Positions 24,698-57,700 of a DNA stretch of 64,000 nucleotides are shown piece by piece (position 1 is the first letter of the stretch; each line of letters starts with the position of its first letter). The stretch covers positions 16,464,948 to 16,528,947 of the forward strand of contig NC_092673.1 in assembly GCF_964355755.1 (NCBI RefSeq). The letters run 5' to 3'. The position numbers were made by a program, and so were the translations under genes. The DNA comes from Antedon mediterranea. Taxonomy: Eukaryota; Animalia; Echinodermata. The notes below the pieces were generated by a model. The model did not search any database. It was given only the letters and a program-made list of their open reading frames with translations, and was not told where the DNA came from.

Positions 24698-24784
24698 AAG
24701 AGAATGTGTAGGCTTACTTTTACACTAGAAGCTATCGGCATTAATAATTGTTAAATGAAGACACTGTATTTTTGCAATGGAAAG
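24698..24784 (+). CDS. Exon containing the proposed start codon (ATG GAA AG| at 24777)
   Basis: TATTTTCAG acceptor and AAAG|GTACGT donor. Phase 2 matches the next exon. Confidence 0.65.
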
Positions 24785-27700
24785 GTACGTTTTTAACAAT
24801 TATTTCAAACAAAAATAACCAGCTCCAATATGTGTTGATATTATTGACATATTGAAATATGTAAAAACAAATTAAAATGTTTGAATAGTTATATTGACAT
24901 ACATATATATACATAACATACTTTATAATCAGAATTTATAGTTCAAACAAAAAGAAAACACTTTGATTTTAAGATATTCTTTTGAGAAAAATACTTCAAA
25001 CTTTCTTAAAAGATTATAAAATCCAAAATTCTTTCTTTCTTTCTTTAAAAATTATGAAATCATAAATATTACAATTAAAGGGCTTATTCTCATTAAATAT
25101 AATAATAATAATATTTCCATCAATCATCATTCTCATTAAATACACGGGTATAAATGGATTATTTCTTACATTTTGACAGGAAACATTTGGTAGAAGCTTT
25201 GTCAAGGAATGATTTGAAAACAATTAAACAAATCTGTAAGACGCAACCAGGTCTTCTGAAATCTATCGATGAGGTATAAAAACAGATATATTTTTATAAT
25301 ATTATCAAAGAAGAAATTCTTTTCATTAAAGTTTAAAATTATAGAGGATGTAATTTTCTTTAATAGTTTAAATCTTTTTTACATACTGAATTACAATTCT
25401 TTTGCATTATCACACTGATGATGGAAGCTTACCTCTATGTACTGATTAACAACATTAGGCTAAAAATAATAATATAAATACACACTGATGATGGAGGTAT
25501 AACCTGCATGTACTGATTAACCACATTAGGCTAAAAATAATAATATAAATACACACTGATGATGGAAGCTTACCTCTATTTACTGATTATCCATATTAGG
25601 CTAAAAATAATAATATAAATACACACTGATGATGGAGGTATAACCTGCATGTACTGATTATCCATATTAGGCTAAAAATAATAATATAAATACACACTGA
25701 TGATGGAAGCTTACCTCTATGTACTGATTATCCATATTAGGCTAAAAATAATAATATAAATACACACTGATGATGGAGGTATAACCTGCATGTACTGATT
25801 AACCACATTAGGCTAAAAATAATAATATAAATACACACTGATGATGGAGGTATAACCTGCATGTACTGATTATCCATATTAGGCTAAAAATAATAATATA
25901 AATACACACTGATGATGGAAGCTTACCTCTATGTACTGATTATCCATATTAGGCTAAAAATAATAATATAAATACACACTGATGATGGAGATAACCTGCA
26001 TGTACTGATTAACCACATTAGGCTAAAAATAATAATATAAATACACACTGATGATGGAGGTATAACCTGCATGTACTGATTAACAACATTAGGATAAAAA
26101 TAATAATATAAATACACACTGATGATGGGTGTATAACCTGCATGTACTGATTAACCACATTAGGCTAAAAATAATAATATAAATACACACTGATGATGGA
26201 GGTATAACCTGCATGTACTGATTAACAACATTAGGCTAAAAATAATAATATAAATACACACTGATGATGGCGGTATAACCTGCATGCACTGATTAACCAC
26301 ATTAGGCTAAAAATAATAATATAAATACACACTGATGATGGGTGTATAACCTGCATGTACTGATTAACCACATTAGGCTAAAAATAATAATATAAATACA
26401 CACTGATGATGGAGGTATAACCTGCATGTACTGATTAACCACATTAGGCTAAAAATAATAATATAAATACACACTGATGATGGGGGTATAACCTATGTAC
26501 TGATTAACCACATTAGGCTAAAAATAATAATATAAATACACACCGATGATGGGGGTATAACCTATGTACTGATTAACCACATTAGGCTAAAAATAATAAT
26601 ATAAATACACACTGATGATGGAGGTATAACCTGCATGTACTGATTAACAACATTAGGCTAAAAATAATAATATAAATACACACTGATGAAGGAGGTATAA
26701 CCTGCATGCACTGATTAACAACATTAGGCTAAAAATAATAATATAAATACACACTGATGATGGGGGTATAACCTGCATGTACTGATTAACAACATTAGGC
26801 TAAAAATAATAATATAAATACACACTGATGATGGGGGTATAACCTGCATGCACTGATTAACCACATTAGGCTAAAAATAATAATATAAATACACACTGAT
26901 GATGGGGGTATAACCTGCATGTACTGATTAACAACATTAGGCTAAAAATAATAATATAAGTACACACTGATGATGGAGGTATAACCTGCATGCACTGATT
27001 AACCACATTAGGCTAAAAATAATAATATAAATACACACTGATGATGGAGGTATAACCTGCATGTACTGATTAACCACATTAGGCTAAAAATAATAATATA
27101 AATACACACTGATGATGGGGGTATAACCTGCATGTACTGATTAACCACATCAGGCTAAAAATTATAATATAAATACACACTGATGATGGAGGTATAACCT
27201 GCATGTACTGATTATCCACATTAGGCTAAAAATAATAATATAAATACACACTGATGATGGCGGTATAACCTGCATGCACTGATTAACAACATTAGGCTAA
27301 AAATAATAATATAAATACACACTGATGATGGGGGTATAACCTGCATGTACTGATTAAAAACATTAGGCTAAAAATAATAATATAAATACACACTGATGAT
27401 GGGGGTATAACCTGCATGCACTGATTAACCACATTAGGCTAAAAATAATAATATAAATACACACTGATGATGGGGGTATAAACTGCATGTACTGATTAAC
27501 AACATTAGGCTAAAAATAATAATATAAATACACACTGATGATGGAGGTACAACCTGCATGTACTGATTAACCACATTAGGCTAAAAATAATCATCCTCAT
27601 ATATAAATAGGCCTACACACTGATGATGGGGGTATAACCTGGATCAACAACATTAGGCTAAAAACTAAAAACATTAATAGAATATGATTTTCATTAAGGC

Positions 27701-30700
27701 AAATGGTTTAAATTAAATTTGTTATCGTTAACATCTAACTTAACTTAATTATGATATTGGTTTCATTGGGTGTTAAAAATCAGTACCGAAAGTAAGCACA
27801 TTAACAAAAATCAAATTTGATTAAAACAAACCAAATAACTAAATAGTTATATATGATTTATGATAACTGATTTAAAGTGTACAGTTACCTATCATATAAC
27901 ATAAATCTTTAATTTTCTTAATGAACAAAAAAAATCTATATTTTTTATATATTCAGTCATTAATCAACAATTATTGACAATGGTCTAATTAATTGTAAAT
28001 ATGAAATAAAATGCGACAACTACTAAACAACTAAAAATGTTTATGTTAAAAAAATTAATAGAATCTGATTTTAATAAAAAAAAATAATTATTAATTAAAA
28101 ACCTGCTCCCTCCCTTACCTTACAAAAAATGCTTCTGTCAGTCTATCCAGCTAATTATAAACATGGCATTAAACTACATCTGGAGATCCGTTTCCAACCT
28201 AGGATCTTTTTGTGCAAACATTTTGCCGCAAAATGAAGAGAAATGTAAACAATGTTTTGTTAGTTTTCAAAATCTAAATTGTGTGAGTAATGCAATTTAA
28301 AAAAGAAAGGCAATATGAAATTATTCTTTTCGAACTGAATGCTTTTAAGAAAAGTTCCGTCTCTTATCTTATGACTTTTTTTGAAAAATGAATTCTCGTT
28401 AAAATATAATATACTAGTAAGTGCTCACAGATGCTTCTTGAATACATGAACTTTGGTAAATAACGGAAAATTGTCTAAGTCGCACTGTACACAAAGCAAA
28501 TAAATTCATATCTGGGGAATAAATATACACCTATTACCTTAGAAATAGTGACGTGTCTCATTCAGCATGGGGCACCAGTAGCATTGCAAAATGAGGTAAA
28601 TGTACAGGGATTTGCTAGTGTAATAGGCTAACATTCTATAGATATGCTGTGGTAAACCATTCTATTTTGTTCTACTCATTTATTAATAATGATAATTATG
28701 ATTATTTATCACAATATTTAGCAGCAATTGTTGTTGTTTGTATTGACAAAAAACAAACAATTTCACATAATGTCTGTTGTCAGTATTTATAAACTTCATT
28801 ATGATTCCTTTCCAGAATGGTGACACTCCATTACATTACTATCTGAGGCATGGATACCCTACCTTAGAAATAGTGACGTGTCTCATTCAGCATGGGGTAC
28901 CAGTAGCATTGCAAAATAAGGTAATGTACAGGGATTTGCTAGTGTAATAGGCTAACATTCTATAGATATGATGTGGTAAACCATTCACATATAAACTTCA
29001 TTATGATTCCTTTCCAGTATGGTGAAACTCCATTACATTCATATTTATGGAGTACTGTACCTACCTTAGAAATAGTGACTTGTCTCATTCAGCATGGGAC
29101 ACCAGTAGCATTGCAAAAGAAGGTAATGTACAGGGATTTGCTAGTGTAATAGGCTAACATTCTATAGATATGCTGTGGTAAACCATTCTATTTTGTTCTA
29201 CTCATTTATTAATAATGATAATTATGATTATTTATCACAATATTTAGCAGCAATTGTTGTTGTTTGTATTGACAAAAAACAAACAATTTCACATAATGTC
29301 TGTTGTCAGTATTTATAAACTTTATTATGATTCCTTTCCAGAATGGTTACACTCCATTACATTTATATCTGGAGAGTGGATATACACCTACCTTAGAAAT
29401 AGTGACGTGTCTCATTCAGCATGGGGCACCAGTAGCATTGCAAAATAAGGTAATGTACAGGGATTTGCTAGTGTAATAGGCTAACATTCTATAGATATGC
29501 TGTGGTAAACCATTCTATTTTGTTCTACTCATTTATTAATAATGATAATTATGATTATTTACCACAATATTTAGTAGCAATTGTTGTTGTTTGTATTGAA
29601 AAAAAAAAACAAACAATTTCACATAATGTCTGTTGTCAGTATTTATAAACTTTATTATGATTCCTTTCCAGTATGGTAACACTCCATTACATTCATATCT
29701 GAGGAGTGGACCTACCTTAGAAATAGTGACTTGTCTCATTCAGCATGGGGCACCATTAGCATTGCAAAATAAGGTAATGTACAGGGATTTGCTAGTGTAA
29801 TAGGCTAACATTGTATAGATATGCTGTGGTAAACCATTCTATTTTGTTCTACTCATTTATTAATAATGATAATTATGATTATTTACCACAATATTTAGTA
29901 GCAATTGTTGTTGTTTGTATTGACAAAAAACAAACAATTTCACATAATGTCTGTTGTCAATATTTATAAACTTTATTATGATTCCTTTCCAGAATGGTGA
30001 CACTCCATTACATTCATATCTGTTGAGTGTATCTACTGCACCTACCTTAGAAATAGTGACGTGTCTCATTCAGCATGGGGAACCAGTAGCATTGCAAAAT
30101 AAGGTAATGTACAGGGATTTGCTAGTGTAATAGGCTAACATTCTATAGATATGATGTGGTAAACCATTCTATTTTGTTCTACTCATTTATTAATAATGAT
30201 AATTATGATTATTTACCACAATATTTAGCAGCAATTGTTGTTGTTTGTATTGACAAAAAACAAACAATTTCACATAATGTCTGTTGTCAGTATTTATAAA
30301 CTTTATTATGATTCCTTTCCAGAATGGTGACACTCCATTACATTCATATCTGTTGAGTGTATCTACTGCACCTACCTTAGAAATAGTGACGTGTCTCATT
30401 CAGCAAGGGGAACCAGTAGCATTGCAAAATAAGGTAATGTACAGGGATTTGCTAGTGTAATAGGCTAACATTGTATAGATATGATGTGGTAAACCATTAT
30501 ATTTTGTTCTACTCATTTATTAATAATGATAATTATGATTATTTACCACAATATTTAGTAGCAATTGTTGTTGTTTGTATTGACAAAACACAAACAATTT
30601 CACATAATGTCTGTTGTCAGTATTTATAAACTCCATTATGATTCCTTTCCAGGATGGTGACACTCCATTACATTCATATCTGAGGAGTAAATTTAAACCT

Positions 30701-33700
30701 ACCTTAGAAATAGTGACTTGTCTCATTCAGCATGGGACACCAGTAGCATTGCAAAATAAGGTAAATGTACAGGGATTTGCTAGTGTAATAGGCTAACATT
30801 ATATAGATATGATGTGGTAAACCATTCTATTTTGTTCTACTCATTTATTAATAATGATAATTATGATTATTTACCACAATATTTAGCAGCAATTGTTGTT
30901 GTTTGTATTAACAAAAAACAAACAATTTCACATAATGTCTGTTGTCAGTATTTATATTACCTCATTATGATTCCTTTCCAGTTTGGTGACACTCCATTAC
31001 ATTCATATCTGAGGAATCGTGGATATCCACCTACCTTAGAAATAGTGACGTGTCTCATTCAGCATGGGACACCAGTAGCATTGCAAAATGAGGTAAATGT
31101 ACAGGGATTTGCTAGTGTAATAGGCTAACATTCTATAGATATGATGTGGTAAACCATTCTATTTTGTTCTACTCATTTATTAATAATGATAATTATGATT
31201 ATTTACCACAATATTTAGCAGCAATTGTTGTTGTTTGTATTGAAAAAAAACAAACAATTTCACATAATGTTTGTTGTCAGTATTTATAAACTTCATTATG
31301 ATTCCTTTCCAGTATGGTAACACTCCATTACATTTATATCTGAAGAGTGCATATACACCTACCTTAGAAATAGTGACGTGTCTCATTCAGCATGGGGCAC
31401 CAGTAGCATTGCAAAATGAGGTAAATGTACAGGGATTTGCTAGTGTAATAAGCTAAAATTCTTTAGATCTACTGAAATAAACTATTCAGTGAGAGAAAAA
31501 AGTAAGCCCATTAACAAAAATCAAATTTTATTAAAACAAACCAAATTAAAATAATAACTAAACAGTTATATATGATTTATGATAACTGATTTAAAGTATA
31601 CAGTTATCCATCACATAACATTAATGTTTTTTCTTAATGAACAAAAACAATCTACTTGTAATTTTTTATATTCAGGTGAATCTATATATAATCAGTATAA
31701 TTTTGTTTAAATACTTTTTACCATAAAATAAATATATATTGCTCATATGTAGCTGTAAAGATAACAACAATTGAAAATGGTCTAATTAATTATAAATATG
31801 AAATAAAATGAGACAACTACAGTATGTTGACAAATAATAGAATAGCAAACAAAAATGTTTGTGTTATTGTTAACAAAATTAATAGAATCTGATTTTAATA
31901 AAAAAGAATTATTAATTGTTAATAACTTGCTCCCTCCCTTACCTTCCAAAAAAATACTTCTGTCAGTATATCCAGCTAATTACAGTTTGAATATGGCCTT
32001 TTAAAGAGATCTTTTTCCAGCATTTTTTTTTTTGCAAATATTTTGCCACAAATGGAAGAGAAATGTAAATAATGTTTAGTTTATAGTGGTTTCCAAAATC
32101 TAAAATTGTTCGAACAATGCAATTAGACATTTTTTTATATTCAGGTGAATCAGTATAATTTTGTTTACATATTTTTGACCGTAAAACAAATATAAATTGG
32201 TCATATGTAGCTGTAAAGATAACAATGATTGACAATGGTCTAATTAATTGTAAAGATGAAATAAAATGGGACAACTACATTGATTAATAATAAAATAACA
32301 AATAAAAATGCTTATGTCAAAAAAATTAATAGAATCTGATTTTAATAAAAAAATAATTATTAATTAATAACCTGCTCCCTCCCTTACCTTACAAAAAAAT
32401 GCTTCTGTAATAGTAATAGGCTAACAATCTTTAGATCTGATCCATGGTAAGATATTCTATTTTGTTCTCATTTATCAATCATGTCAATTAGGATTATTGA
32501 CCACATTATTTAGCAGTAATTCTTGCTATGGTTTGGGTTGACAAAAAAAAACCCAATTTCACATAATGTCTGTTGTCAGTATTATACACCAACAATATTG
32601 CAAAATAAGGTAATGTACAGGGATTTGCTAGTGTAATAAGCTAACATTATATAGATCTGCTGAAGTAGACCATTTAATGAGAGAAAAAAGTAAGCACATT
32701 AACAAAAATAAAATTTGATTAAAACAAACCAAATAAAAAAATAACTAACTAGATTTAAACTCGTCACTACGGACGAGTTAGGTTATCCGCAGCGCAAAAG
32801 GCACGTGCACGTCATACGTTAGAATATTACGCGCAGAAAAACGTTTACACCATTGAAAAAATGATAGTGCGCCCTCTATTTTGCGTCACGTCTGAGTATA
32901 TACGGTATACACTATATACTATATACGTATAACCATACAGTGCAGAATAGTGAAAAGAAGTGACCAAAGTTATTAACGCTTTTGAACATGATGACGTAAT
33001 AACAATTTTAAAAATTGTAAATCATGCGAAAGATAATTGATTGACCTAAACAATATAAAAAATGGAGGGCAATGGAATACGGATAATTGGAGATGCGCTC
33101 TATTAAATGTGATGAGCTATGACGAAAGAGACAAAAATCCTATTATTTATATTCGAGTGGCCATACGATGACGTCACAATGTCCGGTTAGTCATATTGAT
33201 GCATGATTTGATATCTGCAACTCATCTACTACCAGAATATGTAATTTTAAAAAAGTTCACGACGTAGTTTAGAATTTATGACTGTTTAAAAAAAGGCATA
33301 ATTTCGACAAATTTTTGAACTTTTTCATCAAAAATGCGCGTAAAATGTTTAATTCTACGTGCTCGTATGACGTGATTTTAAGTCGAAATTGTTTGAAAGT
33401 TGGTAAATTTTCTAAAAAAGACAGGAAAAACAAAAATCAAGCAAAAAAATGATGTTTTTGCGCTACGTGCGCACGTGCGCGTAAAAAAATTGCGCACGCG
33501 TGGGAATTTTTGAAATGCTCAAAATGACATGAAACGCGTAGAAAGTTGATTAGATATTGATTTTTCGCATTTTGAAATTTTAAACGCGCGTAAATTTTTG
33601 TGAAACATGCCATTTTTAATCCATAGAAAGTTTGCGCTTGATATGACTTAAAGTTTCACCAAGTTTCAATACAAAACGACTTTTAGTTTTTAATCAATCA

Positions 33701-36700
33701 TTGAAATTCATAAAATCGCGCGTAACTTACGCTGCGCGAATCAAAGTTCATAAAAAAAAGTTTCTTGCACATCTACAGCTACAGGGCTATCTTTTGACAA
33801 AGTTATACAATCATATGTTGGCCAGAATTAGAGATACGCTGCGAACAAAATTCGTGGAAAGAAAGAAGAACATAGGAAAAAAAGGGGTTATCCGCCAAGT
33901 GCGGATAACCAAATAGTTATATGATTTATGATCTGATTTAAAGTGTACAGTTACCTATCATATGACATAAATCTTTAATTTCCTTAATGAACAAAAAAAT
34001 CTATTTTTTTTATATATTCAGTTATTAATTAACAATTATTGACAATGGTCTAATTAATTGTAAATATGAAATAAAATGCGACAACTACTAAACAACTAAA
34101 AATGTTTATTAAAAAAAATAATAGAATCTGATTTTAATAAAAAATAATTATTAATTAAAAACCTGCTCCCTCCCTTACCTTACAAAAAATGCTTCTGTCA
34201 GTCTATCCAGCTAATTATGAACATGGCCATAAAGAAATCCTTTTCCAACCTAGGATCTTTTTGTGCAAACATTTGCCACAAAATGAAATGTAAACAATGT
34301 TTTGTTAGTTTTCAAAATCTAAATTGTTTGAGTAATGCAATTTAAAAAAGAAAGGTAATATGAAATTATTCTTTTCAAACTGAATGCTTTTAAGAAAAGT
34401 TCCGTCTCTTATCTTATGACTTTTTTGGAAAAATGATTTCTCGCTAAAATATAATATACTAGTAAGTGCTCACAGATGGTTTTTAAATACATGACCTTTG
34501 GTAAATGACTGAAAATTGTTTAAATACAAAGCAAATAAAATACAGATATGTTGGAATTTATGTAGTCAAATATAATTGTCATCCTGAGAATTACCTTAAT
34601 TTTGTTTATTGCATGGTATTGTTCACCAAATTCCTGTCTTGGTACAATTGATGATGGGATGGTATCAGGCTTCATGATATGATATGATTTTCATCGAGGC
34701 AAATGGTTTAAACTAAATTTGTTATCGTTAATATCTAACTTAGCTTAATTATGATATTGGTTTCATTGGGAGTTAAAAATCAGTACCGAAAGTATGTACC
34801 AACTTTCTCTACCATTGAGTATAAATTCTAGAAGTTGCACTTAATTTACTAAAATTCATTAAACAACTTATTGGTCTCATATTGTTAACATCTAAACATT
34901 TGTTTGTACAATTTTATGAAATATGTATTTTATTAATGTTGAAATTTTGTGATTGATATTTATAAATTTACATAGGGATTTGCTGGTGTAATAGGCCAAC
35001 ATTAATTGTAATTGTTGTTTGTTTTGACAAAAAAACAAACAATTTCACATAATGTCTGTTGTCAGTATTTATAAACATCATGATTATGATTCCTTTCCAG
35101 GATGGTAATACTCCAATACATGTGTATTTTAGGAGGAGTAGATTAATACCTACCTTAAAAATAGTGACTTGTCTGATTCAGCATGGGGTCACCATGTTGT
35201 TCTAGGAATTTCCATGCTAGTTGTGTCTACATTAATCCTCATAGGTTTAGAACATTCTTCAAAAATAGGTCTTCTGACTGGTGCTGCCATCTTTGTGCAC
35301 TCCCAAAACTGAATGATTCATTCTTTAGTATCTCTTCGGATACAAATGAAAACGATGCATTGCTCAACTTGGATCCACTAGTATGTGGAATCAACAACGA
35401 TTCCAGCAGTAATTCGGACTCTATCATTGATCCTGCAGAGGTACTGAAAGGAAAAGGCATGCATTTTCTTCATGTTAATGCGCGGTCTCTACTACCCAAA
35501 ATATCTGAACTTAGAACACTTGTTGGTGGAACCAAAGTGGCAGTCATTGCTGTCACTGAAACGCACCTTGACAGTTCCATTACCGATAATGAAATACACA
35601 TCCCAGACTTCCAACTATATCGTCGAGACCGTGCCAGAGCAGGTGGTGGAGTATGTCTGTACTTCAAGTCTACCCTGGCCATTACTATGCGGTCTGACTG
35701 TGACAATGCCAACATTGAGGCACTATGGTCTGAAGTACATCTCCCAAGAACAAGGCCTATTATCGTTGGAGTCTGTTATCGGCCACCAAAACAACGTCAT
35801 GGTGAATTTATTGATGGAATGGATAACATTATGGAACAACTACCGAGAAACTCGGAGATCTACATTTTCGGAGATACAAACATGTCTAGCTTGAAAAAGG
35901 ATAGCAACTATATCAAATTCCAACAGACTCTGCACATCAGTGGAATGTCTCAAATTATGAGCGAACCCACACGCATCTGTGATTCCTGCGAATCTTGTCT
36001 TGATCATATTATCACCAACTCTTCGGACAAACTAAACAAATTCGGAGTGCTATCTATAGGCTTCAGTGATCACTTTCCTATATAGGCCACTCGTCACACA
36101 CAGCGACAAAAACACCACACGCATAAAAAGGTGAAGATTAGATCAACTAAAAACTACAATAGAGAAAAGTTTATACGTCTTCTTCAAGAGACTGATTGGG
36201 ACAATGTTCACAAGGCAGAAACCGTTGATTTTTCGTGGCAAGCCTTTTGTGTAAATTTCACAAATGTTTTGGATAAAGTTGCTCCTGTAAAAGAAGTCCG
36301 AATTAGACACTCTTCTCAGCCGTGGATGACACCTGACATACTCAAAATTATTAAGGCCAGGGATATTTATCTTAATAGATTCAAAAGAACTCGTAATTTA
36401 TTATATCGTACTGAATACTGTAAACTTAGAAATCAGGTACAAAGAAATATAAAAGAAGCAAAGCAGACTCATTTTATTGACAAGATCAATACAAATCGAC
36501 ATAACCCTAAAAAGTTATGGAAGGTTATAAAAGATCTTGGGTATCAAAATAAACAAAATGAAACTGCTTCGATTACTCTTAAAATAAATGATAAACTATG
36601 TAGTGAGCCAAACATTATTGCCAGTCACTTTAACTCGTTTTTTACAAACGTAGCATCAGATCTGGTAAGAAAGCTCCCGCAAAGGTCATACCAATTTGAT

Positions 36701-39700
36701 GTAAATTCTGAGAATTTTAAAAAATACTATGACGGTACTGACAAATTTTCCTTGCAACCTGTAAACAACGATATAGTTAAAAAGGAGATCTTGGGTCTCA
36801 GTATAAATAAAAGTACAGGTCTAGATTGCATACCCACACGTTTTTTAAGGGATGCGTCCGAAATTATTGCAACTCCCATAACACGGATTATCAATTTCTC
36901 ATTTGAAACGGAATGTTTTCCAAATGAGATGAAATTGGCTCGTGTTTGACCAATTTACAAGAAAAAAAATAATCTTGAAACTGCTAACTATAGGCCTGTC
37001 AGTATACTGTCGGTGGTGTCAAAAATTGTAGAAAAGATTGTTCACTCACAATTAAATGAGTTTTTGGAAAGGAACAAGCTTTTATATCGTTTTCAGTCTG
37101 GTTTCAGACAGTCCTTTTCAACAGATCACTGTTTAATTCACTTGACAGACTTCATTAAAACTCAAACAGCGAAAGGGAAATTTACTAGTATCTTACTTAT
37201 TGACATCCAAAAAGCTTTTGACTGCGTTATAGTCATGACTTACTTTGTAAGAAACTCAGAAAAATTGGAATCGAATCTGTCAGCTGGTTTAAATCATATC
37301 TGGAATGTAGACATCAAACAGTCAATATATTGGTGGGGCTGTTTCAGAGCCTTCAGAAATTGTATGTGGAGTGCCACAAGGGAGCATCCTGGGACCACTC
37401 CTGTTCCTCATCTACGTCAATGATATGCCTATGTCTGTCTCATCATTGTTAATGCAATATGCTGACGATAGTGCAATTGTCAATGCTCATCATGATCCTG
37501 ATATTATCAGTAAAAATCTTGCTAGGGATCTGTCTAATTGTAATAAATAGTTAATTGACAATAATTTATCACTTCACATGGGAAAAACTGAACTAATGTT
37601 GTTTGGTCCCAGGATGTCTCTCAAGAACTACACAAATTTTAGCGTCCTTTACAATGGCTATACAATTTCTTTGAATAGCTCTATAAAATACCTTGGTATC
37701 GAACTAAGCAATAGGCTTAATAGTGAATTAATTGTCTCAACAATTATTAAGAAAGTTAATGGTCATATTAAATTTGCGTATAGGAATTGTCGTAACTTTG
37801 ATCGCTGTATTCGTAAACTCATAATGGAAGCCCTGGCTCTAAGCCATATAAATTATGCTATATCATCCTGGTACTGGGGTACAACCGCGGATTCCCGTAC
37901 TAAACTTCAAAGAACACAAAATAAAGTAATTAGATTCATCTTAGGGAAACATAATAGATACCATATCACCAAAGACGATTATACTTTTCTTGGTTTATTA
38001 GATGTTAAAACCAGGGCCGAACAAATGACACTACAACACGTACAGACAATATATACAAAAAGTTGTCCAGACTTTATGTTAAATAATTTTAATAGGATAA
38101 ATCATAACCATATGGTACTAGAGGTAAAGATTGTAATTTTATTGTTCCAATGAATAACTATACTGTTAGTAAGACCCTTTTTTTTAATGCAATCACACTG
38201 TGGAACAAATTACCAATAGAATTAACAAATATTTTTACACACAATAGTTTTAAAAGGACTCTTAAGAAATTTTTATTAACAAATATGCAAATTATATAGA
38301 CCTAAAATTATGATTGACTTTTCTTGTAAATAATAGTAGATATTTTTATAATTAATGATTATCAGAATTCGGCATAAATCTAACATGTAATTAAATTAAT
38401 TTCTAATACTGTATAAAATAATAATAGATCCATATTTTTGTATAATTATTCTAATATTGTTTTATTATGTTGGGGACCCCTTTGGAAACAAGCCTCTGGG
38501 CTTAAAGGGCCATCCCCTGCTTTCCATGCTTATTTTCTTGTCTAGTCTTGTATTTTTATATTTAATGTTTCTCTTTTTATTTCATTTACATTATACTGTT
38601 TTATATATTTGTACTGTATTTGGAAAGCAATAAATATTACTTACTTACTATTACTTACTCACCAGTAGCATTGCAAAATAAGGTAATGTACAGGGATTTG
38701 CTAGTGTAATAGGCTAATATTCTATAGATCTGATGTGGTAAACCATTCTATTTTGTTCTGGTTTACCACATTATTTAGCAGTAATTTTTACTGTATTGTC
38801 TCGTATATGGTACATCTGCAGCATTGCAAAATAGGGTAATGTAGGCTTACAAAGAATTGTCAGGACAATTTCACATTTTATTGTTATCATGAGTATTTAT
38901 AAACTTGAACTTCAGTATCAATTAGCCTCCATATTAATCAATAGTATTACTACCTCAACGAGCAGCATTATTTAATCAGACTTACCGATATAGAATTCTC
39001 AAGTAAAAAATGTTTGATTGTTTTCACCTTTTTCTCTTTTTACACATAGCACATTCTAAGAAGTTTGTTTTGATTTTGATATTCATTTATAAGTCAACTA
39101 TAATTGTAATGTGTTGTTGTTTTAATATTTCATTTGTATCTTGATAGTATCCAAATATTATTTGCTTTGAAAGTTTATTGTAAAACTATTTGTTGTTTTA
39201 TATTATGGCTCAAACATTTTAACACATTTACCTACTGTTCCAAAGTAAACTTTTATTCAATTTATCTCTCTCTCTCTCTTCCATCTTTCAATGTTGAAGG
39301 CGGTAGACTATAAACGGCAGCGCTTAAGTTTTGGTTTGGATACAGGAGTTATAGGTGGCGCACTGTACAAGTTGATGTCATTTATTGGCAAATAGTAATT
39401 TCTATTCACGTCCTAATTTACAACCAATGTTAAAAAATAGTAAAGCTACGTGTTATCACATGATGCTCTTTCATCCAATCTCTAGATGGTAAATGTTTGA
39501 GCCATGACTGTATGTATGTGATGCGTATTAAAGTGTGTTATATTGTATATCAATAATTTCTCAAAAACTACTAATAGTAACTAAACCCATTTTTTAATAG
39601 GATGGAAATACACCTGTCTCTGTTTTAGAAAGTAAGAGGTGGATAGGGGACCAGAGAAAAACTGAAATTTTAAACTTCTTTAAAAGTAAGTGAAGTTTTA

Positions 39701-42700: not shown

Positions 42701-45700
42701 GCTCTACCAAGTGTATAAAGTGTATATTTTACAAAATATTTATATTATACAAACATGTAGAGTGTTCATTGCATTTTATCAATAAATACATTTAGAGCAA
42801 TTATGACACATTGTACATTCTAGGCTGATTTTTATTTTTTTACAATTAATATTTACAAAAGTGTAGCGTACACACATAATGGGGAACTAATGACTGGGGA
42901 CAATGAGCACATTTTCTGAGCGTGCCTTAGTAGGACCAGAAAAACGCCCTTATTGTAAGCCTTTAAAGGTGCAATTCCAGGTCTATATTGACAAAATTGT
43001 TTGACATCAGCCTAAACCATGGCAGGGTTCGAGTTATGACAAACAGGTATAAAAACAAAATTGGTTACTGGTCATAAAACAGAATATAAATAAAAACATT
43101 CAAAAAGTTCAAAGCATATTGAAAACTTACGATAGATGTTTTTAATCGCATTTCCTACTGCCTCATTCTGAATCATACCAGTTATTCATTTCAGGATTAC
43201 TATATTTTCACTTTACCCATTGAAACCATGCTAATCAACCGTATGTTGCTATAATTTCAACGATTTAGATTCAGGATCGCTGTCAAAAAATGTTGCATAA
43301 CGTCTATATGTTTGGATGAGTTTGATTTTTTTTAGGACATAATTTAAATTAATAACTGTAGTTGTAATAACTGTATACATTGTAGTTAAAAATATACATT
43401 GTTATTATAGTATATTCAGAATGAATGATTGCTTGTACACAATCACCCACAAGTGTTTGTAAGGCTTTGTATCACACAGAGCCTTATACAACCTTATACC
43501 ATTGAAAAAAAAAAGCTATGACTTTTAATATAGTGTTTTTTATGAAAATTAAATATGTAATATTTTGGTTTTGTGCATTTTTTTAGATTTACCAAGTACT
43601 GTTGATGAGCAATTTCAAACACAATTTCAGAAACAGACAAGTGATGAACAGAAAACAAAACTTCTTAAGCCAGAGAGTGGTAAGTTTAAGAATAAGAGCT
43701 GCTGTATGTTTTATGATTGTATCTATATATAATTTAACAGAATTGTGATTAAAATGGGATTTCAGTAGAGAGAATTAGACGCTAATGTTATTTAAAAAAT
43801 CATTTCTGAGCGGTACTGTAAAAAGGCGAAAAAGTGTGCAACTGATAACAAATAACAAATGGAGAGATTTTATTTATCATAAATAATAACAGTTGATTGT
43901 TTCCATTTAAAATACTGTAATACTGGAATGAAGCTAGTTTGCAGATTTATGTGGCATGCTTGCTTGATTTTTGCTTGATTGTTGATTTTTAGGTTATATG
44001 CATTATCATGCGATTTAACGAAATCACGTTTGTAATCATATCTTCACAAGCATGAATCACTTTTAAACAAAATTTGGTACTCATAAATTTCAGGTCATTA
44101 TTTCATCATATGACAATACAATTACGTGCGTAGCGCATATAACGCATGCGTACGCGCGCTTAAAATTTCCAAAATTGTCAAAATTTATTTTCGATGAAAT
44201 TAGAGTACGTTTCAGGCAATTTTAAGCATTTAAAAAATTGCCATGAGTGCACAGATTTTTGCACGCGCACTGCTTGTTAAACGTTAATGCACGATTTCTG
44301 TTGTACAACCTTTCTTTAATAATATCATCATATTTTATTCACTTTTCAACTCGAATTTGCGTTTTCTTACGAGCACGTCAAAAGTGACAGGCTACGCACG
44401 TGTAAGTTAACAAAATGGTGAAAATATGCTAAATTAAAAAAAATAATATAGATCGTAAGAATGCTCGGGAACACATATTTTTTATTTCATTTTCTTGAAG
44501 TGTATGTATCATATGTATGATTTATTATGAAATTAAGAGTACAAAAGTTGATAAAGTCATCATTAATTGCATTTTAAAATTTAAAAAATTTATTTCGACA
44601 ATCAAAAATTTATGACATTTTCTTAGGCCGAAATAACAAACTTTAACTTTCTTCCTTCAAAATAAAAGTTCATATATTAAAGGTAAAAGTATATAGTTTG
44701 ACAGTGCATCGTTTTTTTAACATTTTTAAAGATGTCATCATAGTAAAAAATTATAATTCATTGCGGTATGTCGTAATCTATCTGCGCCAAAGTGGTTACT
44801 GCATAGTAAATACACGGAGGAATCTTTCTACAACTTTTAGTCAGTTGTGTATGGCTCGGTGGTCTGTGCTCGTGAAATAAGATTTTTTTTTATTATCCAT
44901 ATTGTTTGTTCAATTTTATTTTTTAGTGTATAGATTATACACATAATTTATCATGAAATCTAGATAAAATGTAAGTAATGTCTTTATTATTATGTAACAA
45001 TGTGATTTATGACATTATACGCAGAGGGATCTTTGATCGGATTGTGATACCGGCTATTGTATTCCCGTTAGCAAGATCCTATATTATAAACTAGATTTGA
45101 ACTCGTCACTTTGACGAGTTAGTTATCCGCACGACAAACGCCACGCGCACGTCATACGTTGGAATTTTGCACACGGAAAAAGATTATGGCTGTCATATTA
45201 TTGATGTTGTGATTCTCTGTGTTTAGAGAAGGATGCTTTAGACCAGTTCCGCCTTATTATTAGCCAATCAAAATCGTATAATTTTTAGAGGGAAAATGTT
45301 ATCCTCCTCTGAAGCCTAAAATTTGCATATCCAGTATAAAAGTAGAATGTAATAGATATTAGAGGAGAAGAGAGAATAAGATCAGAGTAGATAAACGGAA
45401 AGATGATAAAGAGAATATTAAGGCTTGACTGGTAGTGGTAGAAAGATGTATTAATCGAGTTACAAGGAATAAAAGTTCTAGTTGAGTTAAATATACTTTT
45501 TGTATGAGTTATCATTCAGTGACAGTGTACGTCGCGTGGAGTTATATATATACGCCTGAGAAAGCTCGGAACCAACTAAAATAAATTCACTACAATGGCA
45601 TTATGACCTGAATTTAAGAATATTATATGCTGTTAGTGCTGAATTCTGTCAATTTTGTGTCATATAGTATATACAGTGCAAACGGTATAATCTGTATACA

Positions 45701-48700: not shown

Positions 48701-51700
48701 ATTATCTTTATTTAAATCAATGCATATAACCAAATTCTAGTTTTTTTTTAACTTTATTTACTCCAGATGTTTAAAAAATCTATTAAAATCTTGATTCAAT
48801 TTTCAGATATTGCTGCACGTGAATTAGATTTTCAGAAAGCATACAATGAAGCCTTGAAAGATGGATCCGTTCCAGTCAATCTTGGAATGCTTAAAGTGAT
48901 TGGGCAAGAAGGAGTTGGTAAAACATGCCTCATAAATGCATGTCTTGGAAAAGAGTAAGTAGTAGTAGTAGGACAGTGAAATGAACATTACAAAATATTT
49001 GTGAGTCAACTAAGAATTACAAACCAGCCAACTTTTATTGATTTGATTTTGATAAACTACCACTTTTTAAATATTGCAGTGATAGATAACAATAGTTGAA
49101 TAAAAACGTCTATAAATATATAAATCGGTTTCTACAATAATCATAAAACCATCAAATTTTCTATAGAATATAGAATTTGCTTTTAGGCTTGTATTTAAAA
49201 AAAAGATCATACGAATGGTCGGATAACTTGACTTCCTAAATGTATAATTAATGAATATATTAAAATGGTTTTGAAGTAAAAGGAGAAAAGTGCATGTTTT
49301 ACAGTACCTGTACTTAAAATGACTGAAGTTCATTGTTGGTTTCAAATAATTTTGCCAGATTTGAGGAAAAGCATGTACTTACAGATGGCATAGCGGTGAT
49401 AAGAACAGCAAGCACAACATGGACAGAGGCTAAAGCTGATAGTGGTAAACATGAATACAAATTAGCATATTACTCTTCCCATCATCATACGTTATGTAAC
49501 CATATTTATCAATAATTATTATCATAGACACAAACAAGTCCACAATGAAATGGAGACATAGAATGGAATTCAATAAATGTATACAACCGTAGTATGGATT
49601 CAACAGTCATATTTTCACATACATTACAATTGTTACTCTATGATCCCTTTATAACGCACACATTCTTTGATGATGTACTGTAATTGTAATTTTACTTCGA
49701 CAGTAGTAAAATATCCAAAGTATAGTCACATATGAACGTATGTGCTGAAATAATATGTACACACTTTCTCTTTCTCTACAGGTGATCCTTCAAAACAGTA
49801 TACGAAAATGGTCACTGACAAATTGAGAGCAAAGGAAACTGTAAGCGTATGTCAGTAATAATAGGGTGGTTTCGCAACCATACGAATACGATAACGAAAA
49901 CGGATACGTCACACATTTGTGAAACTTTTGAGCTGATCCCCATTTCATATTCGTAAGGCGTATTTGTGTTGACGAATATCACCAGTCATATTCGTAACTC
50001 CAAAACGAGTATAGTTTTTGATCTATTTTGCACATTTTGCATTTGAATTAGGAATGATTCATGATTATTATATAATTATGGATTTATTGAAAGTAATTTA
50101 CTAAAGTAATTCACTAAAATGCCAGGTCAATTTAGATAAATAGCAGTTTTTAAAGTCCTCACTCGCTTTGATGTTACGCTAGGCCTAGGCAGCTGGCCAA
50201 GCACCAAGCAACACATACCTGCGCTTCGCTCAAATTTACCGCAGTCATATTTTAGACGCGCCTCGATATTTCGTTGCCATGCGAAACAGATTTTTCTATG
50301 GCTTACGAAAACGAATACGTGTGCGTGACGTATCCGTTTTCGTTATCGTATTCGTAAGATTGCGAAACCTCTCTATTGAATTAAGTAGCACCTACAGGAC
50401 TATTGCAAACCAGTCACTTAGGCTTTCTTTCTAAATGAATCAATGAGGCATTATGAGTGGCTATTTCATTTTTTTGCTTCAATCCTTTTAAAATTTACTC
50501 TAAAAATTAATTTGGTTTTGATTTTGAGAGTAAATAATATTAGTTTTCTCTTATATTAAATTGTAAACAATACTGTATTTAACTTTGAATAAACATTTGT
50601 TTCTTTTTTATATCCATATATTGTTTTTGTTTTATGTGTCAGACACCACCTATAGATGATAATAATGACAACAATGATGATTACAAAACTGATGACAACA
50701 ATGATGACAAAAATGATGACAACAATGATGACAACAATGATCGTATGTAACTTTCCCTTAAATTTTAATTATTTTTACATTTTTGTAGTAAAAGCATTAA
50801 TAAATAAGTTGCAATTATCAGTTTGCAATTTCTGTCATATTAAACATCTATTGTCCCCAAAAAACATGAAAAATAAAGATTATTAAAATCAGACTTTGAA
50901 TAGATTATTTTGTAGTCAATCACTTCTGTAGAAAAAAAGGAAACACATATAAAATAACAAAAAATAAATGGTTAAATTCAAGCAAAAACCCATTGGCTGG
51001 CAGTCAATTTGACTATTTTTTGCTTAAAATTACAGTTTTTTAGGTAAATACATTTTTTTTCAATCCAATTTTTGGTCAAAGTGGATAACTATTAGGTGAC
51101 ATTAAAATTGCATATTTAAACAAATATTGTAAGAATTATTTTTTCAAGGGGACATATTTAAGTTCATAGTTATTTAAAATAATAAGATTATTAATTAGAT
51201 TTTCCAATTTAATGTAACTAAAGAAGTATAAAATTATGTTATCAGATTTATAACTTAGAGGCAACCTATCTGTGTAACAATTATGGTGACGGTAATTTAG
51301 AGAAAACATGGCAGCGGCCATCCCACTGCTAGACAGTCCACAGACGCTGTACATGCAGGCTTGATGGGCATGTTTCTTTGTTAGCAAAGTTAAACAAAGA
51401 TGAACTAAAACACTTATTAAAACCTTAAAAGGGGCTTACAAAGATGCTTATTTTTTTGTATGAATCTAGAAGAATCAAAGTGAATTCACAGTCTACACCT
51501 ACTATATAATATACATATACTAGCTTATACAAATGTGCAGTTAATAGTTTGTATATATTACTGTATCCTTTCACATCTACCGTCCCCTTTCGCTTACCGT
51601 CCCGATGCAAAAGCTCACTAATGATGATAATGAGGACAACTATACTCATAGTAATGACTTTTTAACTGACTCATTAACTATGATGATTATAGATGATTAT

Positions 51701-54700
51701 AGGACTAAAACAATGATGCTTGTTATGCCGTTTGTGGAATGACCAAAAAACTTGTTCCCACTACAGGTGCTTATACAGTTACTGAAGCTATCCCATTTGA
51801 TACAGAGCAGCAATTAGATAATGATGTAATCAAGAATGTTGTTGAGGAAAATAAGGAGACTTTGGAAGAAACATTCAACATCTGGGACCATGGGGGACAA
51901 TTAATCTACCATGGTCTACATCGGGTAAGTAGGTTTCTGTATAGACTAACATGATTGTATGGCCAAGGTATAGTTTGCTTTTTTCTTTTTTTTTCCCATT
52001 AAGCAATCGCAAACATCTTTCCATGGTACTGCATAGTAATATATATAACAATTTAATATTAAATTCTTGTCATTTGATTGGAGGATTGTGGGTCACATGA
52101 TATTCAATAGACATACTATTAAACTTTTAAGTCAGATTGCACATTCTTATGTTACACAGTGAGCAACCGAAACATGGGACGCAAGAATAGACTACCTACC
52201 TTGTCATCTGCCAAGGTAGTAAGAATAGACTGCGTGTTAAAAAATCAATCTGTATTGTCGCGTCTATAATTGTTCTACTTCTCTAATAGTTTAGGCCTTG
52301 GCCTAGCCTCTCGTTAAAAGAATAACACACCTACTTTTAACAAGAGGCTAGGCCATTGAAAAAGTAGCACTCTAATTTTAGACAGGGAGTAAAACAATTA
52401 GACACGGCACACACTACAGGTTAAGGAAATGTGATCAGTCAACAACAGCCTCTTCACTGTGTAAAATATGCGCAAAACAAAATTGCAGTATTCGCACACA
52501 TATAACGTTGCACTCTTGATGACATCATTAGGAGAGCATTTATTTATATCATGCAACCCATAATCCTCCAATCAAATAAAAGAATATACTTAGGTGTGTT
52601 ATAATATACAAATAATGAATGTTTACGAGTGCACTGGGGCAAATAATTTCATGTGATAAAAGTAGAACATTTCATCTATCACTACGCCAACTTGGTAATA
52701 ATATAGACAATACTCACACAGATAATACAACTGAATAACCGATACTTGAGGTATAACAATAATGTAACTTTATTAACAAAGCAAACAGTAAACATTCGTA
52801 TGTAAAACAACAACAACGAGGGGGCTCATATGGAGCGCCGTACGTGACATAACAGCCAAACTGGCGTGACTACCTTTTTTTTTTTTTTTCCTTTTCTCAA
52901 AAAAAAACAAAGTCAACAACAAAAACGGCAAATCGGGACAAACTGTGAATCAAATATAAAAAATTGAAAAACGAGCTTTCATCGGGTAGACTGCCCTCCA
53001 GCTTGGGGATTATTCTGCCCCACAATACTTATCAGGAATCACTTGTCAAGTACAAAATCGTTAAGATGAGTGGGTAAGCGATGACTGCGAGTAGATCGTC
53101 TGGGTTCTATCACTGGTGGTGGAATAACGACTTTATGAAGGTCGGTGAGAGGGCGGACATCATCAGAAGCAGCAGGAGTTAAGAACTCTGAGTCGGTACC
53201 AGCAGGCAATGGATCAACCTGGTAAGCGTGATCGGCTGGGGTTGACAGCTCAATAGGTATTTCTGTACGCGGTGGCTCAGGAATTTGATAATCATCATCG
53301 CTGTTCGAGTCCTCTTGGTAATAATGTTGCGATCGAGGAGATGGTGACGAGGGAACCTTGTAGCATTCCGTACGCTTGACTTTGTACGCCGTACTACGTA
53401 ACTGAGAACCGATAAATTTGCGGATATTGCACCAAGTGTTATCAACCGACGTTACGAGATAGCGATGACGGGCCTTTGACTTGTTGCGATCGGCTAAGAC
53501 GTACACAAGATCACCAACATCAATATCGGAGCTTGCTGGAAAACGGCCCGTTGGAGCCTTTGATCTTTCACTATGTGCATGATTGGCTAAACGACGTTTG
53601 TGCTGTGAGATAATTAATTGACTGTCAGACAGAGGAATTTGGTCGTTAGTAAACTGGTCGCGTTGTGTCCACATCTCCCTAGAAGAGAGACCACATGAGC
53701 GTAGTCGAGAGTTTAAGCAAGCCATAGTAATTTTGAGCATAGTTGGGGTGACTAATCCACCAGTGGGTTCTTGTGTAAGAAGTTCGTCTTCTACTTCACG
53801 TACGGCCTTTTCGGCGATTGGATTCTTATTTGGGTTTTTGGTTCTTCCTAGCTCAATCATTATTCTGTGGTGCGCTAACAACTTATCGCTGACCAACGAA
53901 GCAAATCCAGGAGCAGGGTCGGTGCGAATTACAGCGTGTGGGCCGTCAAGAGGCCTGAGCTCGATACAAAGGCGGATTAAACCGTCTCGTAGACTGTCGT
54001 GACGTTCGCTGTCGATAATGCACGCGACTGTAAATGATGTTACACACTCTCGCATCACTAGAATAAGTTGTCGTTCACGCTTAATTACATCAGCAGCGAA
54101 GGTGGTACCAACTGCATCGGGTGGGTCTCCGGTGGACTGCGGGATAACGGTATGTGGAATAGAGCGAAGGGCAGCGCAGTGGTGACATCTTGCTGAGATA
54201 CGCTCCACAGAGGCATCCATGTCGAGAGCGAAGAAATATCTACGAACGATCGTTTTAAGCTGATGGCACGAAGGGTGGTCAAAACGCAGATGAAGTGCTG
54301 TGAGAAGGCCCTCGAGGACATCACGAGGAACAACAATACATTCGCGTACGGGTGCGAGTGGCTCATCCCTACGAACGACCAAAAGACCATCCTTGGCTAT
54401 GGTAGAAAATCGTAGAAGGCGCTTGACATCTTTAATGTTTGTGATTTTTTTGTGGGGGCGAGTACCCTGAGAAAGGTGAGCGTGAGTGCGTCGTAGGACC
54501 GGACATTCAGACTGGATGGCCAGCCAGGCAGGACGACTAGTGAAAGGTAGCTTTGTGGAGCCAGATATAACGTCTTTAATGTTCACTTGGAAAACAACAG
54601 AGTCTTCGGTTTGTTGGACAAAAGAGCAGATTTGGCAAGAAGGAGCGTCACAAGGTTGTGCGTTCCTGCTCCCGAAGTCGGACGGCATATTTGCGGAACC

Positions 54701-57700
54701 TGCGAGGTGGTGAACAGATGCGTGATAGCGGCTAACAGTGGATAAGAAGGTTGAAACCCGAGGACTCACAGAGAATTCACCTCTGCACAACTTTTCGTAG
54801 GCTTGGACACATGGCTTACTGTCTGTCAAAATGTGTGCCTGATGTGCGGATTGTATGATAAATGGACTAAAGTGTTTTGTGGATGCGGCAATTGAAAGAG
54901 CTTCGACTTCACATGGTAACCAGGTCATTTGTCGTCCGCGTAGTTTAGCGCTATAAAAACCAGCGAGTAATGGTTTGCTGTCACGGGAGACATACAAGGT
55001 GGAAGCTATGCCATATTTCTTGACGGCGCCATCAGTTACAATCCACAATTGGTCACTTGCTCGTGGGATGGCAATCGTGTGTGGTGAGTTGAGGATAGAT
55101 TGCGCACTTGCGAAACTAGCGAGCAATTCGTCAGACCAGTCTATCTTCTCTTGGGATTGTCGTCCAGCGACAGCAGCTTCAAGAGGTGACAAAATAGGTG
55201 CACATCGCGGGAGAACGCGAGATAGCATCTTAAATGCGCCAATGAACGATCGTAATCCGGTCACGGTGACTGGTCTCGGGCAGCTAGATAATGTTGAGAT
55301 GCGATGAGAGCTAGCTCGGAGTGTCCCTTGGCTCCATATCCACCCAAGAATGTTAGTAGTCTTAGGACAGATAACGGTTTTGGTAGCGGATAAATGTAGT
55401 CCTGAGTTGGATAGTGCATGAAGGATTCTTCTCCATACGTTCAAGACCTCTTCAACTGTATTACCGCCGCAGTAAAGATCATCAGCGAGTTTTGTAGCTG
55501 AACCTTCTTCTAAAAAATCACCCACTACTCTGCTTAGAAGTTCTTCCAATGCGGTTTCTGACCCCGGCATGCCCATTGCGCAACGGGTATATACCCTGAC
55601 ACCGTGAAATGGAGTGACGATTCCGCAATATTTCATAGACGGTTTTGAAAGTGGAATTTGGTAGAAAGCGTTGGTAAGATCCGTTGTTATAATGTATTTC
55701 CACTGTCCGATTTTAAGAAGAGTGGAGTCGACGTCAGGCATGAGTGACGGTTGTGGTTTGCTGTACCTGCCGACATCGGCAAAGGATGTCACTAATCTGG
55801 AACCGCCGTTGGGTTTCTTCACGAGGAATGACGGATTGAGATATTCTACAGCAACTCCAACATCTTCTGGACGGGCAAAAACTCCAAGTGTTTCGAGTTC
55901 GTCGAACTTGTGTTGTAGTTCGAGGAGCTTGTCTCTTGCATACTGAGGAAGGCGACCTTTGCGTTGTGGGGGTTGGACTGGTCCCATATTTACGGTGGCA
56001 ACAAACGGGCCTACAGCACCATTATAACCTTTAAAGGAAGGGTTGAAAATGTCATCATACTCCTTGTGGAGGCTAGTAAATTGTTCGAGTATGTTGCGAG
56101 GTAGAATGCTATCCGGATCCAGCTTAATGTTATCAGAGAAGCAAGTGTGAACTGTTGTAGTGCTAAGCTTTGGTGGTTTAATCGGGGATGATGAAGTGTC
56201 AGGTAGGTTAGGTGTAAACACAGGGCTAGCTTGGCAAAACTGTTCATTGCGTGAAAGCACTTTGGGTTCGTCTGACAGGTTAGGAATGCGAATTCGTCCG
56301 GCAACGCACGATATGATACGTGGTTCAGGCCAAACATGAGATGGCAAAGATGTTTTCGAGATTGGTGCATCAACGCGAGGTTCAATAGCAACAGTGTCTA
56401 TGTGGGTGAGGTCATTTGGGAGTGAAAGTTCAATGTAACTACCTGGCCATATCACAGTGCGTGTTGAGGGAGCACGGAGAACATGAGCGCGTCTGATCGA
56501 GTGGCATTCGGACAAAGTGGTAGGCAAAGAGCCATAGATGTATGTTGTGCCATCGGCCATAACTACTTGACGCTTAGCGGGGCGGATAGAAATATCATTC
56601 TGTTCCATAAACGGTGTACCAGCGAGTAGCTCAACGTCGAGGTCCTTAACGACGAGGCCATTGAAAGTCAAGTCTTTATTGTCACGTGTAAAGGTGACGT
56701 TTGTCTCGCCCATAACCTGTAACTGCGAAGATCCATCGGCTTGGTGTGCTGATTGACTACTGGGCTTAATCTGAACGCCAAGTAAACGTGCAGTTGATTC
56801 ACGGATCATGTTGCCAGTAGCACCGCTGTCTATAGTAATATGTACGGTATTATAGCCGTGAAAGGCTTCGAGATATGGCGACTGACGTACCTGTATTCGA
56901 AGAGCTGAGGATGAACCAGATGGTGGGTCGTTGGGATCCTCGACACGGGTGGAATCCTGTTCATAGCAGTAACTGTCGTCATCGTCGAAGATGTTTGCGG
57001 CCCGGGCACGTGCCATGTAGCGGCGGTCGCGTTCCGGAAGGAACTTGCACTCACTGAGAAAGTGGCGGTCTGGTCGTCCACCTTGTTTACAAAATGGGCA
57101 GCATTTATTTGGTTTGTTATTGTATGTCTGAGTATTGAATGTCTTAGGTGGGTAGCGGGAACGCGGTGGTTGAGAAGGAAGAGAAGCTGGTCTTTGAAAC
57201 GGTAAAATCGCTGAACGCATGACTCTTGTGTCATCGGAAGTTTTGATTTCTTCTAATAGGGAAGTCATAGCTTGTGAAATTTCAGGCTTGATGGACGCCA
57301 GTGTACGTGAGCGAAGCTCTGTGCCATACCTCTGTTTGACGAGTTGGGGAAGTGAAGGGTGAACTAAGCGTAGCCATGTCAGTGTGAGTAGGTTTTCAAG
57401 TGAAGGGGTGAGTTCTTCGTCTTCCGTAATAGGTTGATTGTGGTGAGTTATAACACTGTCTGCTTGAAGAAGATTGTCATCAATGAAAGCTAGCAAACGT
57501 TGGTATAGATCCTCTGGGCGTTCATCTGGGCCCAGACTAATGTTAGCAAACTCTAAGAAATGAGCCCCACTAGATTGGAACCCGTAATGTAATCGTATGC
57601 ATTGCCAGATGCAAGGTAGTGATGTGGATGATTTTACGATAGTGTTTCTTGAGATTACAGGGCAATAGTTAGCAATTTGACCTAACATTAGTTCCAACAT

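Follow-up and report, generated by a model that had tools for sequence, protein, structure and literature searches.

An ankyrin array with one exon per repeat

The DNA analysed here, a window of 64,000 nucleotides from contig NC_092673.1 of the crinoid Antedon mediterranea, carries a tandem array of ankyrin repeats within what appears to be a gene of the ROCO family, in which a Roc GTPase domain is joined to a COR domain. A first-pass annotation had listed nine repeat peptide strings at 28816-31420, and all nine are found there as it gave them. The repeats do not form a continuous open frame; every one is encoded by a separate exon, which is bounded by a CAG acceptor and a GT donor and runs from phase 0 to phase 0. 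This one-exon-per-repeat structure and the ROCO context were missing from the earlier account and were added by our analysis. Exon lengths range from 102 to 111 nt, every one a multiple of three, giving repeats of 34-37 amino acids, and exon plus intron makes up a tandem unit of ~330 bp. Seven of the introns are 219-222 nt long and the first is 97 nt; three of the eight are not multiples of three, and the long introns differ from one another by a mean of 2.9% (21 pairs). All three array exons tested against Pfam Ank matched it. The array and its relics are as follows.

28501..28595, + strand: relic ankyrin unit A0, 5'-truncated; donor retained, no normal acceptor or TPLH start, distinct loop
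28816..28920, + strand: ankyrin exon A1, loop RHGY (Pfam Ank E=4e-7)
29018..29122, + strand: ankyrin exon A2, loop WSTV
29342..29449, + strand: ankyrin exon A3, loop ESGYT
29672..29773, + strand: ankyrin exon A4, loop RSG
29993..30103, + strand: ankyrin exon A5, loop LSVSTA (Pfam Ank E=0.005)
30323..30433, + strand: ankyrin exon A6, a recent duplicate of A5 (units 98.5% identical)
30653..30760, + strand: ankyrin exon A7, loop RSKFK
30982..31092, + strand: ankyrin exon A8, loop RNRGYP
31313..31420, + strand: ankyrin exon A9, loop KSAYT (Pfam Ank E=5e-6)
32413..32674, + strand: rearranged unit remnants (intron pieces and an exon 3' end), detected with blastn
35101..38682, + strand: A10, a tenth ankyrin exon that is more diverged and is interrupted at ~35195-38658 by a long interspersed nuclear element (LINE) with a 6-nt target-site duplication

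The LINE within A10 (35195-38658) encodes an endonuclease domain, ends in a TTAC-repeat tail and has its open reading frame (ORF) in several pieces.

Two other readings of the array were rejected. A bacterial or single-ORF origin is incompatible with the stop-containing GT-AG introns that separate the units. An assembly artefact was dismissed on the grounds that the units differ in ways that preserve the frame and that their framework is common to RefSeq relatives.

The predicted ROCO gene

Reading splice sites by eye, we obtained a predicted model of 25 exons and 1,013 codons that is free of stops and frameshifts and runs past the end of the window. All 24 donors and all 24 acceptors are canonical. 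One open frame thus leads from the start through an N-cap, the nine symmetric phase-0 ankyrin exons, a C-cap and a linker to Roc and COR.

24777..24784, + strand: start codon through to the end of coding exon 1 (M-E-R, phase 2); RefSeq model P0141 has the same start
25180..25273, + strand: N-cap exon of the ankyrin domain (tblastn, 88% identity over 34 aa to P0141; 68% to P0005)
39601..39685, + strand: C-cap exon (67% to P0058)
43587..43679, + strand: linker exon (100% to P0003/P0004)
48807..61937, + strand: predicted Roc GTPase, exons 1-4 at 48807-48954 (P-loop GQEGVGKT), 49359-49444, 49782-49840 and 50643-50742
Same span, + strand: predicted Roc GTPase, exons 5-8 at 51767-51924 (WDHGGQ), 61011-61100, 61298-61477 (G4 motif THKG) and 61683-61937
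62635..64000, + strand: predicted COR exons at 62635-62829, 63190-63384, 63573-63875 and from 63980 onward (Pfam COR-A E=1e-5; 86-89% to A. mediterranea paralogues)

The Roc domain is followed directly by COR, the arrangement that characterizes ROCO proteins. The Roc exons match Pfam Roc weakly and the COR exons match COR-A at the E value listed; the G1, G2 and G3 motifs are present as GQEGVGKT, LTDGI and WDHGGQ. No kinase precedes the ankyrin domain, in contrast to DAPK1-type ROCO proteins, as the model opens with the N-cap like RefSeq P0141, and the nucleotide-binding part is Roc-COR rather than a NACHT or NB-ARC domain. The exon at 50643-50742 is Asp/Asn-rich and of low complexity; it lies inside the Roc domain, and its length is very different among paralogues.

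Variable positions within the repeat

We numbered the repeat in register with designed ankyrin repeat proteins (DARPins), following their numbering scheme. Positions 2, 3, 5, 10, 13 and 14 were set a priori as library positions; they are described in PMC3308923 as randomised in an ankyrin library and facing outward on one surface. All six vary among the nine exons, compared with 4 of the 27 other positions (Fisher p=1.9e-4), namely singletons at 1, 26 and 30 and a V/T/A/E series at position 28. The C-terminal half thus varies as well, at position 28 and, with a K/E difference, at position 2. The first-pass annotation had described hypervariability confined to the ankyrin binding face. The library positions bear this out, but "confined" is slightly too strong because the C-terminal half varies too.

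The second-helix positions 17-25 are invariant in all nine exons. The loop after YL is 4, 4, 5, 3, 6, 6, 5, 6 and 5 codons long in A1 through A9, in agreement with the earlier description of 3-6 codons changing only in frame. The framework was likewise correctly described as near-invariant even at silent sites; synonymous variation is seen at two positions only, 21 (ACG/ACT) and 12 (CTG/TTA). Amino-acid change is concentrated at positions 2, 3, 5, 10, 13, 14 and 28 and in the loop between helix 1 and helix 2, and framework and introns are homogenised.

AlphaFold models of paralogues place positions 10, 13 and 14 on helix 1 and positions 3 and 5 just ahead of that helix, and they assign the variable loop to the helix1-helix2 turn. 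An eight-repeat paralogue is predicted to fold as one ankyrin solenoid (pLDDT 82, pTM 0.79) whose model resembles ankyrin-B (TM 0.74, E=3e-14). An ankyrin repeat domain is made of 33-residue helix-turn-helix-hairpin repeats with a GxTPLH motif, stacked between caps; the array is assigned to this class by its Pfam Ank matches and by the predicted fold of the paralogue. The variable residues are assigned to one face by homology (DARPin register, helix limits in paralogues, and PMC3308923). Fold searches of a short 135-aa model against PDB and viral libraries returned ankyrin and DARPin matches only at E>0.001 and gave no specific viral link.

Evidence for diversifying selection

Selection was assessed by a tree-free counting test, in which the minimum number of changes per column is scored. 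In units 2-8, library codons carry 13 amino-acid changes over 15.2 sites, versus 17 neutral changes over ~222 intron and silent sites, a ratio of 11 (p=1e-8). When all nine units are compared with exon silent sites alone, the ratio is 5.6 (p=7e-4). Changes in library codons are distributed as 8/6/2 over codon positions 1/2/3.

Site models were also applied, in our own implementation with fixed relative branch lengths. The M7 versus M8 comparison that the first-pass annotation had proposed as a check gives a likelihood-ratio test (LRT) statistic of 16.6, with omega ~8 on 23% of codons. The M1a/M2a and M8a/M8 comparisons likewise give 16.6, and a star tree gives 31-32. Positions identified as selected are 13, 3, 5, 28, 14, 10 and 2. 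An LRT of 16.6 was reached in none of 44 null simulations, in which genealogies were reshuffled every four codons.

Relatives outside the window exhibit a similar pattern. Six A. mediterranea repeats of the same subfamily depart from the window majority in 14 of 36 library cells versus 15 of 162 other cells (p=5e-5), and have no variable string in common with the window. Library positions are also the more variable ones within all three paralogues that have at least four repeats (p=0.002, 0.03 and 0.02; 25 columns).

An expanded family in Antedon mediterranea

With one Roc exon as query, all 16 proteins retrieved were from A. mediterranea (best 84%). All 16 carry COR-A and/or Roc, and the closest full relatives score above both Pfam cut-offs. 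Identity to P0003/P0004 and to XP_071947399.1 is 100% in the linker and the first Roc exons, and later exons match other paralogues best, at 73-96%. The family is mosaic, since different exons have their best matches in different paralogues. We retrieved 30 A. mediterranea records on six contigs, 13 of which have this repeat type with 2-13 repeats each, and by sequence similarity the closest relatives of the gene constitute an expanded family in this crinoid. P0058 has the same order of repeat, C-cap, linker and Roc as the window gene. RefSeq P0141 shares the window's framework as well as its start, and the framework also matches XP_071948736.1. Members of the family in RefSeq (for example, XP_071948736.1, XP_071948802.1, XP_071947399.1 and XP_071964198.1) are annotated as uncharacterized proteins and often split. 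Death-effector-domain (DED) matches were obtained for P0013, P0019 and P0027, four further relatives gave weak ones, and the best solved-structure matches of P0003 are prokaryotic Roco proteins and LRRK2.

The repeat type was not seen outside A. mediterranea among the matches listed (best 120 of 511, best 150 of 13,211, and all 19 of 19), where long generic ankyrin arrays dominate, so that absence elsewhere does not follow.

Several relatives have features of their own. An intronic segment of the window, 41509-41596, is used by RefSeq as the first exon of P0003/P0004, which suggests that the annotation misses upstream ankyrin exons of these genes. P0005 contains two Roc-COR units in tandem, one of each G4 type. 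P0020 (XP_071943401.1) has 13 repeats, four of them with aromatic-rich helix1-helix2 inserts of 18-23 residues and the rest with 6-8; if the model is right, the long inserts could be likened to the third complementarity-determining region (CDR3) of antibodies. P0021, P0024-P0026 and other ENA proteins, on contigs of 0.5-4.5 Mb, are long ankyrin-Roc proteins of another expanded group, whose internally similar repeats are of a different type.

Repeats and mobile elements around the gene

An apparently intact long terminal repeat (LTR) retrotransposon lies in a Roc intron at 52680-58388, with a 1,635-aa gag-pol (- strand ORF, 53039-57946) and terminal repeats 97.5% alike over 204 nt. A fragmented LTR retrotransposon (gag, protease and reverse transcriptase) is found upstream of the gene at 17865-21454. 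Satellites occur upstream at 13749-17433 (89 bp x 41), at 24044-24635 (31 bp x 19), and in the intron after the N-cap exon at 25411-27591 (71 bp x 31). A non-coding interspersed repeat of ~0.9-1.4 kb is present in three copies 73-77% alike (32953-33883, 45635-47002 and 47139-48539), and has very deep read coverage in all four runs mapped, of 11. These four runs all cover introns and contain no splice junctions, and so have no bearing on splicing; their summed depth over the ankyrin array is several times the depth over single-copy intron pieces, although this is not a measure of copy number.

Possible function and origin of the diversity

The array forms the ankyrin front end, with one exon per repeat, of the predicted ROCO gene, and it probably serves an intracellular sensor as a fast-evolving surface for ligand binding that is diversified in the germline. 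The predicted binding-face residues change far faster than the rest, which suggests a sensor role akin to that of candidate immune receptors in brown algae and fungi, and the combination of a variable N-terminal solenoid with a Roc-COR switch, followed in relatives by a death-fold tail, resembles the layout of intracellular sensors. Prokaryotic AP-GTPase/COR proteins with fast-evolving leucine-rich repeats (LRRs) are described as counter-invader systems in PMC8195603. Once spliced together, the repeats could form a single stacked solenoid, with a groove that would bind foreign or altered proteins. By analogy, binding might shift the nucleotide and dimer cycle of Roc-COR, and the signal might pass through a C-terminal death-fold domain of the kind seen in relatives, which here would lie beyond the window.

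As to how the diversity arises, the four-gamete test fails for 18 of the 36 pairs that the nine informative sites make (two of these sites represent a single indel marker), and 37 of 43 repeats have their nearest framework neighbour within their own gene (0.84 within genes, 0.71 between). A5 and A6 are recent duplicates. The units evidently recombine or convert, and the diversity is therefore best read as germline concerted evolution together with diversifying selection. Exchange between near-identical units of exon plus intron, by unequal crossing-over and by gene conversion, would alter repeat number and reshuffle variable segments, and selection would exempt the surface from homogenisation and retain new surfaces.

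A number of observations weigh against this reading. Position 28, which follows the second helix and has four residues, is a real exception, as a fast site outside the library set, and position 33, which the original DARPin design reportedly randomised, is invariant in the array. The other 27 codons of units 2-8 have a ratio of 0.98 to neutral, largely due to position 28. With silent sites in the same 12-codon tract as control, the ratio is 2.9 and borderline (p=0.058), and the nonsynonymous-to-synonymous ratio of the whole exon, 1.6, is not significantly above 1 (p=0.29). The site models draw on nine units with four silent changes only. The first-pass claim of diversifying selection is thus upheld by the counts, the site models and the out-of-sample relatives, but less so by the local silent control and the whole-exon ratio; selection at library-type positions is well supported, though not proven because units and silent changes are so few. 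A working mRNA must skip A10, which the LINE has broken. The sensor role is a proposal from sequence. Finally, the G4 motif THKG (61298-61477) lacks the usual guanine-contacting Asp, and GTP specificity is therefore uncertain. G4 is THKG or THKA in all 17 records of the window gene's clade in which the motif was found, and THMD or THVD in the sister clade. G4-G5 are reported to vary among Roc domains (PMC6337361), so THKG does not exclude membership in the ROCO family.

Alternative splicing, rather than germline change, might be the main generator of diversity, with the N-cap and C-cap flanking one or a few chosen ankyrin exons in a cassette or Dscam-like manner. This is a possible account, although not the one we favour, and it is compatible with the selection signal. 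Because all exons are phase 0-0, any subset is in frame, up to 512 subsets from this locus. In one paralogue, the RefSeq isoforms X1/X2 (P0266/P0134) are set apart by precisely one 36-aa repeat, located at the same boundary, RefSeq models of the same subfamily have only 2-3 repeats, A10 has to be skipped in any case, and the LRR exons of brown-algal ROCO genes are described as alternatively spliced (PMC11378527). However, introns of 97-222 nt do not compel exclusion, other RefSeq models unite 6, 8 and 13 repeats, docking/selector-type pairing was not found beyond weak AT-rich inverted matches, and intron RNA folds no better than shuffles (z=0.19). Single-exon skipping may nevertheless add isoforms. 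We regard as speculative and rather doubtful the broader idea of an anticipatory ankyrin receptor repertoire that would combine DARPin-like modules, CDR-like loops, selection, conversion and cassette splicing with GTPase and death-fold output. Loops are 3-9 residues long in this subfamily and ~20 in one paralogue model.

The locus could instead be a recently dead or truncated paralogue whose pattern was inherited from an active ancestor, or its ankyrin part could be transcribed apart from Roc-COR. The LINE in A10, the LTR element in the Roc intron, and the fact that separate A. mediterranea models cover the closest ankyrin halves (P0141, P0144) and the closest Roc-COR halves (P0003, P0004) are consistent with such a history, but it is unlikely given 25 exons intact in frame and at every splice site, and given that P0058, P0005, P0019, P0027 and P0177 each unite ankyrin, C-cap and Roc in one RefSeq model. 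A neutral array seems slightly less probable again. In such an array the framework would be constrained and homogenised while surface codons drift with omega near 1, or the indel-rich loop would block conversion locally and retain older variants. The borderline local control fits this explanation, as do a somewhat more variable acceptor-side intron flank (4/24 nt) and a double silent change beside the loop in A2 that looks like an imported tract. Yet the invariant G4, T6, P7, L8, H9 and Y11 interleave with variable codons in one tract, third positions are mostly fixed, change is 11 times as dense as in introns, M8a (omega=1) is rejected with no null simulation reaching the observed LRT, and the pattern recurs in paralogues. 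Very improbable is a clonal repertoire that arises somatically, through rearrangement of the units or conversion between them, a hypothesis put forward for the ROCO genes of brown algae. Relic units do flank the array (A0, 32413-32674 and A10), as inactive exons flank Ectocarpus LRR arrays (PMC3341825), but germline unequal crossing-over is already expected to leave relics, no recombination signal was seen, and somatic recombinants are described as unreported even in brown algae (PMC11378527). The earlier phrase "natural DARPin library" holds insofar as library-type positions vary; "library" is an analogy only, with no sign of clonal or somatic diversification.

Comparison with known systems

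The ROCO genes of brown algae, as described in Zambounis et al. (PMC3341825) and Teng et al. (PMC11378527), have one LRR per exon and undergo exon shuffling, diversifying selection and alternative splicing. They resemble the window gene in having N-terminal repeats ahead of Roc-COR, a single repeat in each symmetric exon, repeat numbers that vary, relic exons by the array, diversifying selection on the repeats, an expanded family and a candidate immune role. Selection on the ligand face, typical of the algal genes, is also detected here, with the local control borderline. However, the algal repeats are 24-aa type I LRRs in phase 2 exons, whereas those of the crinoid are ankyrin repeats in phase 0 exons, with dedicated N-cap and C-cap exons, near-identical introns and a variable-length loop. 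No opposite-strand exons were seen in the window, and the window's relatives have death-fold tails. The gene thus appears to work like the exon-shuffled ROCO candidate receptors of brown algae without being a member of that group, its repeats being ankyrin and not LRR.

Fungal NLR-like proteins provide an ankyrin counterpart, with conserved repeats that are under selection at the concave face (Dyrka et al. 2014, PMC4986451). Shared features are near-identical repeats, which in the fungi are polymorphic in number, and positive selection on the inner helix and the hairpin, with a single site lying outside the concave face. The fungal proteins have a NACHT or NB-ARC ATPase and C-terminal repeats, in contrast to the Roc-COR GTPase and N-terminal repeats of the window, and the relevant passages of PMC4986451 mention neither an exon-per-repeat structure nor a variable-length loop. 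The gene appears to work like the fungal receptors too but falls outside their family; it is a ROCO gene equipped with ankyrin cassettes. Animal ROCO proteins (DAPK1, LRRK1/2, MFHAS1 and a Trichoplax expansion; PMC6337361 and PMC11378527) share the Roc-COR tandem with the window gene, and DAPK1 has a terminal death domain. Unlike these, the part of the gene within the window has no kinase or LRR, and has hypervariable exon cassettes and an expanded mosaic family. No family of this kind in crinoids or echinoderms, nor a deuterostome version with ankyrin repeats and a variable loop, was found in the open-access literature, with subscription papers outside the scope of our survey. The findings would carry the design of shuffled repeat exons joined to a ROCO GTPase, described in brown algae, over to a deuterostome animal, in an ankyrin version, and they point out a candidate immune-sensor family whose members RefSeq leaves uncharacterised and often split.

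A further parallel is artificial. DARPins, whose architecture is described in PMC8683736 and PMC8229355, and artificial ankyrin libraries (PMC3308923, PMC8683736) share with the array an N-cap, internal modules, a C-cap, a constant framework and the same six variable positions. The array differs from DARPins in being natural and germline-encoded, in having YL instead of AA in helix 1, and in a helix1-helix2 turn that is 1-4 residues longer; compared with artificial ankyrin libraries, position 28 varies here and position 33 does not. Natural variation falls on the six positions that engineers chose to randomise in an ankyrin library, and it extends to the length of the helix1-helix2 turn, which could be explored as a further site when binders are designed.

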